From NCBI GenBank assembly GCA_965217195.1, contig CBDCHL010000003.1, forward strand, positions 1,437,260 to 1,501,259: a stretch of DNA of 64,000 bases, in the 5' to 3' direction. Source of the DNA: Bryobacterales bacterium (lineage in GTDB: Bacteria > Acidobacteriota > Terriglobia > Bryobacterales > UBA6623). Positions within the stretch are counted from its first letter, which is position 1; every line of letters begins with the position of its first letter. Both the position numbers and the translations under genes were made by a program. The notes under the pieces were generated by a model, which made no database searches, was not told the DNA's origin, and saw nothing but the letters and a program-made list of their open reading frames with translations. This document shows positions 58,075 through 63,636 of the stretch, in pieces.

Positions 58075-59085
58075 CGCGCAACTGTATAGCCAGTTGCGTG
58101 CGATTATATCGCAGCCGAACCAAGTACCGATCGAAAGATGACTGTCGGCAACCGTATCGAGACAATCGGCGTGCGGCCTCTCATCCCGAACACGCAGCGA
58201 CAGGGTTCGAAAAAACCCGCTGCTCTAACCGCCCAGCAAGCCGGCGACAACACAACCTATCGCTCTTTGTACGACAAGCTAGGAATTTCCCTTCGTTAAT
58301 CCGCGAAGCGCCGGAAAAGTTTCCGAGAGGTCCCGCATCGGACGGCCGGCTGCTTCCGATATGGGGGATTGTCGGAAAGCACTGGCCTATGCAGGGGATC
58401 CGCACGGTGGAAGCTGAGCCTGGGACACCCGCTGCCGCGAACCGAGACTTGGCGGAAGTAATCGTAGACCCCCGTCGGTCGGACTCACATCCAAGAGCTT
58501 GTTGCTGACCGTGGTGAAGGGCCAGCCCCCCGCCTGCGTTGACACTGCGCCGTCAGGGAGGATCTAGTGCCATATGGGCAAACGGATGCTTGACGGGGTG
58601 GAGGCCTTCGTACTGCATGCCCACGCTAGAATGATGGGCGTCACCGTCGGATAGATGTTGAGAAATGATTTCCCGTCGAGCAATCAGCCGTCAGATCCGC
58701 CGCGACCAGGCCGCCGCAAGGGCCGAAAGTGAGTTCTCTCAGGCGGCTAGCGAGCGTCGGGGCCGATAGCGAGTGACATCGATTGTTATCGCCATCGATC
58801 CTCAAAGCGCTTCCGGTACCGGCATTAGGTCGGACCCGCTCTGGTCGGCGACCGGCATCTGGAAGCGAAATTGCCACGATTCCTGCAGGCGTGAGCACCG
58901 GCCGAGGTGAAAGCGCCCGAAAGGCCGATCCGGGCCTCGTACTCACCAAGCCGTCGTTTCCAGGGCTGTCGAAAAAGCAGAGCCGCTTCCGTGTCGCGAT
59001 GATCGATCCGAGCGTGGGATCACGGCGGACTGACTGGAAAAACCTAAGCACGGGACAGGGCCTGTGTTTCTAGTGGAGGCACCGC

Positions 59086-62000: not shown

Positions 62001-62382
62001 GCTTGCTCGGTCCGCCGCCAAGATTGTTCGCGCCGGCGGACGAGTCTGTGTCGGGGGGCATGGACAGTTGCAGGGAATCCAATGCCACTGGGAGATGTGG
62101 GCGCTCCAGAGTGGAGGCATGACGAACCTTGAGGTGCTCCGGGCGGCGACGCTGCACGGAGCTGAGGCGATCGGCTACGCGCAGGATCTCGGGAGCATTG
62201 AGGAGGGAAAGCTGGCCGACCTGATCGTCCTGAACAGAGACCCGCTGGAAGATATTCGGAACACCAATACGATCAGGTACGTGATGAAGAACGGAGAGTT
62301 GTTTGAAGGGGACACCCTCAACCAGGTCTGGCCGCAGCAAAAGGCCTTGCCGCCTCTGTGGTGGTGGAACGACGAGCCTTAG
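59086..62382 (+). CDS. secreted TolB-like (PD40 beta-propeller) + amidohydrolase fusion protein (1098 aa)
   Basis: Signal peptide. PD40-type repeats (PRYSPDGSRIAFLSDREGAENVWIADADGSNAKRLS, PAWSPDGQWLAYV). C-terminal metal-dependent hydrolase (IMPGIIDVHAHW ... GGHGQLQG ... GKLADLIVL). Confidence 0.9.
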   Translation: MTKSSGISWLLGIGALLVAAEHPLALAQEGNEAEHENRGVRGAEPKDEKEGLPLKPERKIEFTTDEGTWISLDVSPAGTTIIFDLLGDLYSLPIEGGEAALVAGGMAFESQPRYSPDGSRIAFLSDREGAENVWIADADGSNAKRLSNDDSNLFTSPGWTSDGDNVLVSRRTENGFEIWMYHVGGGAGIQLVKVTPPPGTPGYATQGALGAIAGPGGRYVYYAKGVGKPAWMPAGSFGRWQIARRDLLTGVEELITEALGSAIRPRLSPDGTKLVYGTRYDAATELRIRDFSTGEDRRLKYAVQRDDQESPAAQDLLPGYAFTPDGKEVVLSYGGKIHRVDIESGDTKTIPFVANVRQDLGPLLDFPSRVDDGPVRVRLIHDPSQSPDGKRLAFSALTHLYSMEIPSGTPRRVNSGDDREFHPAWSPDGQWLAYVTWSADGGDIWKARVDGQGSPRKLTQVPGYYRHPIWTPDGARIVALRGLTGVRVKRIRDYGPYTGTPSGDDIVWVPAGGGEARLIVPARGLGRLHFGEEKTRIYASSKADGLVSFRFDATERRSHLKVTRSFDNDTRPTGEIIVSPNGRYAAARILQQLYVMVVPRVGGDAPTVNVSAPSVPAKIVSEVGADYMAWADDGSVLTWGMGSSFFRARIDDIFAHGVKQLETGADTDGTVEHDALPIEEIDVKIELPRHRPRGSIVLRGANVVTMRGEEVIENADIVVSDNRITFVGRRGAADIPDGARVFDVSGATIMPGIIDVHAHWFEIRRGLLDMQNWPFLANLAYGVTAGRDPQTSTNDTFAYQDLVDVGEIPGPRAFSTGPGVFDIRSASEASNVVTRYKKYYRAKTIKNYAVGNREKRQWFVQAAKEHRIMPTTEAWNLKLHITHVIDGFSGNEHSIPVFPLYRDVVELIARSGLTYTPTLLLAYGGPHAENVFYVNGEVHDDPKLRRFIPHNVLDLKTRRGPWYREDEHVYRKLARSAAKIVRAGGRVCVGGHGQLQGIQCHWEMWALQSGGMTNLEVLRAATLHGAEAIGYAQDLGSIEEGKLADLIVLNRDPLEDIRNTNTIRYVMKNGELFEGDTLNQVWPQQKALPPLWWWNDEP

Positions 62383-62633
62383 CGAGTGCCCTTTAGATTC
62401 GGGCGAAGAAGCGGGAGCGAACGGCTCATTTCTCAGAGAAGTTTTCGGCAGTGAACAGGGCTAAGCCATTCAAAAAGAACCACATAGCCCTCGTCCGCGG
62501 ATTACTGTCGCGAAATCCGGTTCGCATGAACAATCCAGCGCCTGAGCGTGCTCAGCGCCCCCGACGGATCCAGAAACCGAGCCTACGCAACGGCCTGGGC
62601 GAAGAAAGTCTCTCTGTTTGTGACATGGCTTGG

Positions 62634-63516
62634 TAGGGTCGAGAACTGGCGCGGTGGCCCGTCAGGACGCCGGCTTGGCTGTATCCGGGGTTTCCCCCTT
62701 CGTGCCCGTTTAGCCGTGTCCGTAGCTCCGTCTCCAGCTCCCGCCACCTCGCACGCAGCGTGCGGATTTCCCGCACTACGCGCTCCTGCACACTTCGCGA
62801 CAAGATTTATGAGACCTATCCGGTTGGAGTTGCTTTCGACGATGGCCCTGGAGCCGTCACCCAGATTCAGGTGTCCGCTCCCACCATCGACTACTCCACC
62901 CCTTCCATCCGAAGCCTTGGCACGACGCCAAGGCCATTCAGCCTTCCTCTTGCCGTATAGTCCTGATCGCAGATCCTGCAGACTGCTGGACGCTTTTATC
63001 ATTCGTCCCTGCCTCACTGTTGTTGACCAAGACTTCACGTGCAGCAAGGTCCCATCGCTCCGCAGGCGTTACCCCGCTTCACCGCTACTACGAACCTAGC
63101 CGCCACCCTCTCGCCTTCCACCGACTTCCTGGTTGTCGCCAGTTATACGGCTTTCGTGCTCCGTCGATTTCGCGACGGGACGAGGAGGGCTTCTCCAGTT
63201 GCTTAGCATGCCCTTGTCACCGTGCTGTCCCTACCACCCCGCCGGAGTGACCTGGCGCCGCAGTCAGTTTGCGCCAAGTCATGCTGCCTTCGCCCGTGAT
63301 AAGGGGGCTCGGCCTCCGGGGTTTTAGCTTTTCGAGGCCACCTGTGGGTTCACTTCCGTTACGGCCCGGTGACTCGCTCACCATCCCAAGGATGGCTTTG
63401 TCGATTGGCTTCATCGGCTTCGTTTCCTCCACCGATGCAACTCAAGCTACGGGGCTCTGACTCTTACCCCGGTGGGACTGCCTCCCACTGAACATGCCAG
63501 CCTTCGCTGGACGCAC
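62634..63516 (-). mobile_element. group II intron, ORF-less/degenerate (RT gene almost entirely deleted); 3' boundary uncertain (62716 or about 62634)
   Basis: The minus strand starts GUGCG at 63516 (GTGCGTCCAGCGAAGGCTGGCATG...GGGTAAGAGTCAGAGCCCCG...). There is a remnant of an intron-encoded protein start (MIKASSSLQDLRSGLYGKRKAEWPWRRAKASDGRGGVVDG, compared with the usual SLQxLRxxIYxKAKAE...AKANxGAxGVDG). A domain-V-like hairpin GAGCGCGUA-GUGCGG-GAAAU-CCGCAC-(GC bulge)-UGCGUGC sits at about 62750-62785. Confidence 0.6.
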
Positions 63517-63636
63517 TTATCACCAGGTATCATCTGTCAGTACAAACCACGGCGTCTCGTTATTGAAACGCGCTCTCCGATGTTCACGGCGACGATGAGA
63601 ACAAAGAGCGTGGTGTCTTCGTGAGGCCCGGCCGGG

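Follow-up and report, generated by a model that had tools for sequence, protein, structure and literature searches.

An ORF-less group II intron in a Bryobacterales contig and its relatives in Acidobacteriota

In bacteria, group II introns that lack an ORF are rare, are usually accompanied by related introns that encode an RT/maturase (IEP), and are probably short-lived (Zimmerly & Semper, PMC4424553). The closest precedent for the element described here is the set of TeI3 introns of Thermosynechococcus elongatus, of which 17 are ORF-less, share one DIVb deletion, retain remnants of the N- and C-terminal parts of the ORF and show good EBS/IBS pairing (PMC2882425); mobilisation of these copies by the IEPs of related introns has been proven experimentally (Mohr, Ghanem & Lambowitz 2010, PMC2882425). 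The same design, in which the DIVb loop is taken out, DIVa is retained and the IEP comes in trans, underlies the engineered introns Ll.LtrB-deltaORF and TeI4h-deltaORF (PMC2882425, PMC3898094), which are laboratory constructs of other classes, whereas the deletion reported here is natural. ORF-less introns that share one protein are a bacterial model for the evolution of both a common splicing machinery and non-autonomous retroelements, and the worked example so far comes from a single cyanobacterial genome (PMC2882425).

We analyzed a stretch of 64,000 nucleotides from a Bryobacterales bacterium (hereafter, the window), the minus strand of which carries an 884-nt intron without its ORF. The natural delta-ORF, non-autonomous group II intron is a known kind of element, uncommon in bacteria, of which the window probably contains a new member, one from an endonuclease-less, IIB-like clade frequent among Acidobacteriota. 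As in TeI3, the family of the window copy has a DIVb deletion of ~1.1-1.5 kb flanked by N- and C-terminal ORF remnants, with identical breakpoints among copies; in both families, EBS/IBS pairing is good at several sites, the EBS have diverged into sub-families, and ORF-containing relatives are present in related genomes, here including one MAG that has both forms on the same contig. The TeI3 introns differ in that they belong to the CL/IIB1 class, have IEPs with an endonuclease domain, reside in one genome, go back to one deletion event and are mobilised in trans, as proven, whereas the window family is endonuclease-less, has a CGC triad in domain V and a long domain VI, occurs in several acidobacterial MAGs, appears to have lost the ORF at least twice at the same stem, and is known from sequence alone. 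The window adds a second, unrelated clade from another phylum, and its natural delta-ORF designs, together with the matched IEPs, are candidates for compact gene-targeting introns.

Three groups of described introns were considered in placing this clade. The endonuclease-less introns of 'class F' include So.us.I2 from Solibacter (Bryobacterales) and Ge.ur.I1 from Geobacter (PMC3552965). The window family resembles them in having an IEP with RT and X domains only (no D/En domain was found in the IEP of the full-length relative L059), a ribozyme of IIB-like size, a 7-bp EBS1 and overlapping hosts, with Bryobacterales and Geobacter MAGs among the relatives; in contrast, among solved structures, the L059 IEP is closest to IIC RTs (GsI-IIC). 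The window clade possibly falls within class F, a lead that comes from the overlapping host taxa alone. Likeness to IIC introns extends to the CGC triad in domain V, the endonuclease-less IEP and the position of several copies just downstream of a hairpin and a U-tract. However, IIC introns are much smaller, have an IBS1 of 3-4 bp and have no known EBS2, whereas the window ribozyme comprises ~760 nt without the ORF remnants, ~510 nt of the intron lie upstream of domain IV, the EBS1/IBS1 pairing spans 7 bp, and in some relatives an A-rich, EBS2-like loop pairs with a U-tract; membership in IIC was rejected on the basis of the 7-bp pairing and of the ~510 nt. Finally, B.c.I4-type introns, which are listed as having an 'altered 3' splice site' (PMC4424553), share with the window copy an unusually long sequence 3' of domain V. 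In the window copy, the basal helix of domain VI encloses the extra ~70 nt, CUAC is all that comes after this helix, and the bulged A is at the usual distance of 6 nt from the 3' splice site, which rules out a 3' extension of the B.c.I4 type. In B.c.I4, the extension comes after domain VI.

The intron reads GUGCG...CCCUAC, that is, it has the GUGYG and AY termini of group II introns at its 5' and 3' ends, respectively. The sequence that follows GUGCG at 63516, taken in an earlier note on this DNA for domain I, matches the Rfam model RF02003 end to end (model positions 1-138), far above the gathering score of 49, and this was the sole Rfam match at the gathering threshold in the whole 64-kb window. 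The two ends were located with the help of the contig L084, which shares the neighbouring amidohydrolase gene with the window at 100% identity and contains an unoccupied homologous site: both intron termini coincide with the break between the sequences of the window (...GGTGATAA|CAAGCCATG...) and of L084 (...GACGATAA|CAATCGATG...). When the 884 nt were cut out in silico, the window aligned to L084 straight through the junction at 83% identity, and the extent of the intron was fixed accordingly; the 3' end proposed earlier, 62634, was close but one base short. L084 cannot be regarded simply as an empty allele: its identity to the window is 100% up to 62526 and 83% from there through the insertion site, beyond which the two sequences are unrelated. 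The same boundaries are indicated by colinear copies of 883-885 nt in L004, L005, L035 and L066. For the window copy, the target site is GATACCTGGTGATAA|CAAGCCATG and the expected ligated-exon junction is ...GGUGAUAA|CAAGCC... All six ribozyme domains are present (Table 1).

Table 1 Features of the intron and its immediate surroundings, in window coordinates.
Feature	Position	Strand	Basis
Terminator-like hairpin outside the intron, 36 nt before the 5' splice site	63552..63571	-	Hairpin count not above shuffled expectation
IBS1 GUGAUAA, last 7 nt of the 5' exon	63517..63523	-	7/7 Watson-Crick pairs with EBS1
Complete group II intron without its ORF, 884 nt	62633..63516	-	RF02003; unoccupied site in L084; colinear copies
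Domain I core	63354..63490	-	RF02003 (group-II-D1D4-4), 120.7 bits, E = 1.7e-26
EBS1 UUAUCAC, terminal loop of domain I	63296..63302	-	Alignment column; loop position; complementarity to own exon
DIVa-like hairpin, former IEP start codon AUG (63002-63000) in the loop	62988..63009	-	Stem GGACG/CGUCC
Remnant of IEP codons 1-26	62925..63002	-	tblastn, 73% identity to L059 IEP
Deletion-junction hairpin GCCUUGGC-GUCGU-GCCAAGGC, breakpoint in the loop (62926-62922)	62914..62934	-	Arms complementary, 1119 nt apart in full-length relatives
Remnant of IEP codons ~398-413 (GFGWKRWS...), in another frame than the N-terminal one	62872..62919	-	tblastn; blastn to L001 4713-4745
Domain V, 33 nt; triad C62782-G62781-C62780, AC bulge 62761-62760, GAAAU loop	62751..62783	-	RF00029 alignment; RNAalifold; homology to full-length relatives
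Elongated domain VI, bulged branch-point A at 62639	62635..62745	-	Consensus fold; covariation at 5 pairs

The domain V model RF00029 had no match in the whole-window scan at the gathering threshold or in a scan of 2.5 kb (E <= 10), and aligned to 62785-62713 at 32.6 bits, against a gathering score of 40, when 62620-62800 (181 nt) was searched. We attribute this sub-threshold score to the atypical domain VI rather than to the absence of domain V. Covariance-model matches to group II domains, suggested earlier as a check, are thus provided by RF02003 and, below threshold, by RF00029. The hairpin previously read as domain V at about 62750-62785 stands, as do its 2-nt bulge and GAAA-containing loop, but the AGC triad assigned to it was 2 nt out of register; in the RF00029 alignment, G-AGC of the model is set against G-CGC of the window. 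Thirteen pairs were recovered in domain V by RNAalifold, with compensatory changes from A-U to C-G at the triad. Domain V, including the CGC triad, is identical in all acidobacterial copies, with or without the ORF; proteobacterial relatives mostly have an AGC triad with the compensating A-U pair.

The ~115 nt located 3' of domain V are structured, as previously noted, and represent domain VI with an internal elaboration that is common to the full-length relatives and supported by covariation, i.e. a trait of the whole clade and not a peculiarity of the window copy. The basal helix (GGCGGGAGCUGG/CCAGUUCUCG-A-CC) is invariant or covarying in 15 diverse relatives, and the bulged A is the seventh nucleotide from the intron 3' end, as expected of the branch point. 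The additional length is a variable distal elaboration inside the basal helix and is shorter in a Bradyrhizobium relative.

Full-length homologous introns, for which the earlier note had proposed to search, exist in other genomes. A blastn search against plasmids returned 42 records (Bradyrhizobium, Cupriavidus, Paraburkholderia, Caballeronia, Polymorphobacter) that match 63516-62925 (590 nt) at 74-77% identity and then run into annotated ltrA genes; segments 62916-62884, 62820-62729 and 62653-62632 match the plasmid introns ~1.1 kb further along. Relatives were also gathered from species-representative genomes with an exact 29-nt pattern from the intron 5' end, which yielded 76 stretches, mostly from Acidobacteriota MAGs (Bryobacterales, 'Ca. 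Marinacidobacterales', Vicinamibacteria), with some from Pseudomonadota, Geobacter and Polyangia. These include full-length introns of ~2005 nt with ORFs of 431-447 aa (L059, L064, L018, L045, L053, L014 and others). Some full-length relatives from Bryobacterales MAGs have intact ORFs that combine RVT_1 and GIIM without an endonuclease domain and could encode a helper protein; in the 435-aa L059 IEP, RVT_1 spans residues 95-309 and GIIM residues 332-405, and neither an HNH domain nor another endonuclease domain was detected. One 49-kb contig carries both the full-length L016 and the ORF-less L063, and the IEP ORF of L016 has a premature stop at codon 345. The full-length L049 also has an IEP ORF that stops early, after codon 62; these two disruptions could reflect either real decay or errors of low-coverage long-read assembly.

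Compared to 11 full-length introns, the window copy lacks 1117 nt of domain IV. When the L059 IEP was searched against the 64 kb with tblastn, residues 1-26 and residues 398-413 were found on the two sides of the deletion in different frames, and no further IEP sequence was detected anywhere in the window. The loss of the RT/maturase claimed in the earlier note is thereby substantiated, and the similarity to an RT N-terminus which it reported is genuine for the first 26 codons; by contrast, the downstream peptide AKASDGRGGVVDG is not motif RT-0 but a frame-shifted C-terminal remnant, given that the same DNA, read in the other frame, encodes ...QGFGWKRWS... of the full-length IEP. Thus, covariance models, full-length homologues and the comparison with the empty site all confirm the core of that reading, a minus-strand group II ribozyme scaffold that is without its RT/maturase and would require a protein in trans. 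Domain IV now consists only of a DIVa-like hairpin and the closing stem. The stem of the former, GGACG/CGUCC, is replaced by GGGUG/CACCC in a second set of ORF-less copies, i.e. by compensatory changes, and this hairpin is a putative IEP-binding site because DIVa has such a role in other introns (PMC2882425).

The deletion falls at a long-range stem of domain IV. In full-length introns, GUCUUGGCGC, the 10 nt preceding the deleted segment (codons 22-26), is complementary to GCGCCAAGGC, the 10 nt that follow it 1119 nt downstream (10/10 in six introns and 7-8/10 in five). In ORF-less copies, the two arms fold as a hairpin with a 5-nt loop, the ~1.1-kb loop that encoded the RT/maturase being gone exactly at the base of the 10-bp long-range stem. 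Since the arms of both ORF-less lineages are complementary in the full-length introns, both deletions took out the loop of a long-range domain IV stem.

Apart from the window, the first of these lineages comprises four copies of 883-885 nt (L004, L066, L005, L035; 89-91% identity) in two Bryobacterales MAGs. L004 and L005 match the window over the full length of the intron at 89-90% identity and are located in unrelated gene neighbourhoods; all four share with the window copy the junction ...CUUGGCG-UCRU-GCC... within different flanks, that is, a single breakpoint at different sites, as in TeI3. The second set consists of 8 copies of 898-902 nt, ~75% identical, in five 'Marinacidobacterales' MAGs. 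The ORF is gone at essentially one place in all ORF-less copies; the junction loops differ between the two sets (UCRU vs. CUUCUUGC), and the divergence is up to ~10% within an ORF-less lineage and ~25% between the two. A neighbor-joining tree of p-distances was computed from the aligned ribozyme parts alone. In this tree, full-length L016, L059 and L078 cluster with the ORF-less copies of Bryobacterales, the window copy among them (94/100 bootstraps), and full-length L049 and L053 cluster with the ORF-less copies of Marinacidobacterales (98/100 bootstraps); monophyly of all ORF-less copies was recovered in 0/100 bootstraps, and we therefore rejected their single origin. Because the two sets are each sister to different full-length introns and differ in the junction loop as well, the ORF appears to have been lost in at least two independent events, in each case at the base of this 10-bp long-range stem. 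This suggests that ORF loss can be recurrent and structure-predisposed.

The window copy is therefore not the lone, decaying 'remnant' that it had been taken for but one of an ORF-less lineage whose members share breakpoints, occupy several insertion sites and have matched EBS1/IBS1. Several sister copies have at least 100 nt of 5' flank in common, and therefore part of the rise in copy number may be due to duplication of a larger repeat rather than retrohoming. A scan of metagenome contigs with a junction-specific pattern gave only 2 matches, too few to call the junction abundant there. A more general proposition, which we put forward tentatively and as slightly short of an evenly balanced case, is that acidobacterial endonuclease-less introns recurrently give birth to SINE-like non-autonomous lineages, through stem-base deletion at least twice, followed by persistence, EBS1 retargeting and spread across orders; it is plausible, on a small sample and a simple phylogeny. 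Should such recurrent, persistent lineages be real, they would contradict the view of bacterial ORF-less derivatives as rare and short-lived.

Other deletion derivatives were encountered in the same intron clade: L031 (1131 nt) has a different breakpoint and retains ~250 nt more of domain IV, and L055 (769 nt), also with a different breakpoint, has lost more sequence. At L008, L026, L032, L051, L060, L065 and other 'Marinacidobacterales' loci, only the first 47-77 nt match, with nothing else found within 3 kb; such loci represent 5' fragments or else another intron family with a common 5' end.

The pairing with the exon is specific to each copy. The EBS1 of the window is unique among the copies and pairs at 7/7 positions with its own 5' exon; across the family, cognate EBS1/IBS1 pairing amounts to 6-7 of 7 in 24/25 copies, compared to a mean of 3.5 for non-cognate combinations, and L012 shows C/G covariation in EBS1/IBS1. 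In Marinacidobacterales copies, an A-rich EBS2-like loop pairs with the exon U-tract; no convincing EBS2-IBS2 pairing was found for the window copy. The window copy satisfies 213/217 consensus pairs (98.2%; RNAalifold), in the same range as ORF-containing copies. Double compensatory changes are present in 74 of these 217 pairs, and in the Bryobacterales ORF-less clade variable columns make up 10% of stems vs. 19% of unpaired regions. Among the substitutions in stems that are private to the window, 17/18 keep pairing. These counts, which lean slightly towards the window copy because the consensus structure was built from an alignment including it, indicate that this copy has kept its fold since its divergence.

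The principal alternative is that the copy is a dead relic, inserted once or inherited, which lost its ORF, neither splices nor moves, and looks intact only by virtue of its youth. Youth is difficult to reconcile with the ~10% divergence from the nearest ORF-less relatives, over which the private stem substitutions nevertheless kept their pairs, and a relic is not expected to show a unique EBS1 matched to its own exon, an intact domain V, domain VI branch A and both termini, or to belong to an ORF-less lineage present at several loci. We consider this explanation unlikely, even though it is favored by the absence of an IEP from the 64-kb window, the lack of a convincing EBS2/IBS2 pairing, the location in a rearranged intergenic region, where no gene needs splicing, and the rarity and short life attributed to bacterial ORF-less derivatives in reviews (PMC4424553).

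If the window copy is, as we favor, a non-autonomous delta-ORF intron, its own EBS1 would have guided its reverse splicing into the intergenic site, and it would be transcribed by read-through on the minus strand. Splicing and further mobility would rely on the 435-aa RT/maturase of a full-length relative elsewhere in the genome, which would bind the retained DIVa region; this dependence in trans on the IEP of a relative is what we infer from the sequence comparisons. Because the IEP has no endonuclease domain, priming would take place on replication-fork DNA. As for the deletions themselves, they are probably the result of a polymerase jump over the base of the domain IV stem, be it by RT copy-choice during retromobility or by replication slippage.

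Far less probable than a relic is protein-independent self-splicing in vivo, as proposed for C.te.I1, under which no IEP would be needed and mobility would have been lost. The complete ribozyme is conserved, and one bacterial ORF-less intron has no IEP at all in its genome (PMC4424553), but the retention of the DIVa-like hairpin and the old start codon with compensatory changes suggests continued protein binding, the retargeting of EBS1 across copies implies ongoing mobility, which needs an RT, and full-length relatives co-occur in related genomes. That the element is no intron but a chance likeness to group II motifs or a real small protein gene, as the many database 'homologues' of a 154-aa frame could be taken to mean, is hardly credible and is already refuted by the Rfam match (E = 1.7e-26), the colinearity with annotated introns, the consensus fold of domains V and VI and the unoccupied site in L084, the frame itself joining IEP remnants out of register and containing no Pfam domain.

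This 154-aa frame runs through the element and fuses the N- and C-terminal remnants. An exact-sequence look-up of the frame gave no match. It has 314 database matches, many of them of 110-200 aa and with 70-88% identity over most of its length. Such short 'proteins' are translations of the same RNA element, which accounts for a family of spurious 110-200-aa 'hypothetical proteins' in annotation. Database 'proteins' of ~190 aa that contain a GIIM domain (P0052, P0061-P0063 and others) show 70-75% identity over ~41% of the frame and are probably C-terminal IEP fragments of full-length relatives read on through domains V and VI.

Many relatives have a conserved target of ~35 nt in common, and in several of them a hairpin and a U-rich tract lie just upstream of the insertion site. 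The terminator-like hairpin upstream of the window copy was not retained as a signal, such hairpins being no more numerous than expected from shuffled sequence. Four full-length proteobacterial introns (L001-L003, L057) are nested in domain V of a further group II intron (e.g. ...GAGCCGUAUGAGGUGAGAGUCUCACGUACGGUU|GUGCG...) and are twintrons that home into domain V; in L001 and L002, a second annotated ltrA is located just upstream, and the 5' flank of L073 ends in a similar ...CACGGUU. The window copy is not a twintron but sits 107 nt from a ~20-nt vestige of a different intron. This vestige (62508-62527, minus strand) consists of AUGCGAACCGGAUUU and CGCGA, which resemble the initial 15 nt and the final 5 nt, respectively, of a group II intron other than the ORF-less one. 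A complete intron (RF02005 D1D4-6, 174 bits; a 521-aa RVT_1 protein; 3' end ...CCCUACCGCGAU) occupies the homologous position in L085 (~640-2600), and L084 reads GUGCG there. Judging from these sequences, the vestige would be what is left of a second intron, next to the ORF-less one, after an extreme internal deletion.

The surrounding region is rearranged, and the intron is flanked by a TPR-like ORF fragment and by a convergent gene for a 1098-aa amidohydrolase whose end is at 62382. Within a part of the window that is otherwise 99.96-100% identical to L084, a 202-nt insertion is present at 58785-58986 (insertion point ...GACATCGATT^TCCGTG); it is shared with L085 and has no second copy in the 64-kb window. 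The junction of this insertion, GACATCGATTGTTATCG, resembles the unoccupied target of the intron in L084 (CATCGATTG|TTATCG), and we regard the insertion as a possible small mobile element or repeated homing-site cassette. At 62527-62650, the window, L084 and L085, which are near-identical and come from the same population, pass from 100% identity (up to 62526) to 81-83% and then to unrelated sequence, a pattern indicative of intron homing sites that together form a hot spot of recombination or rearrangement.
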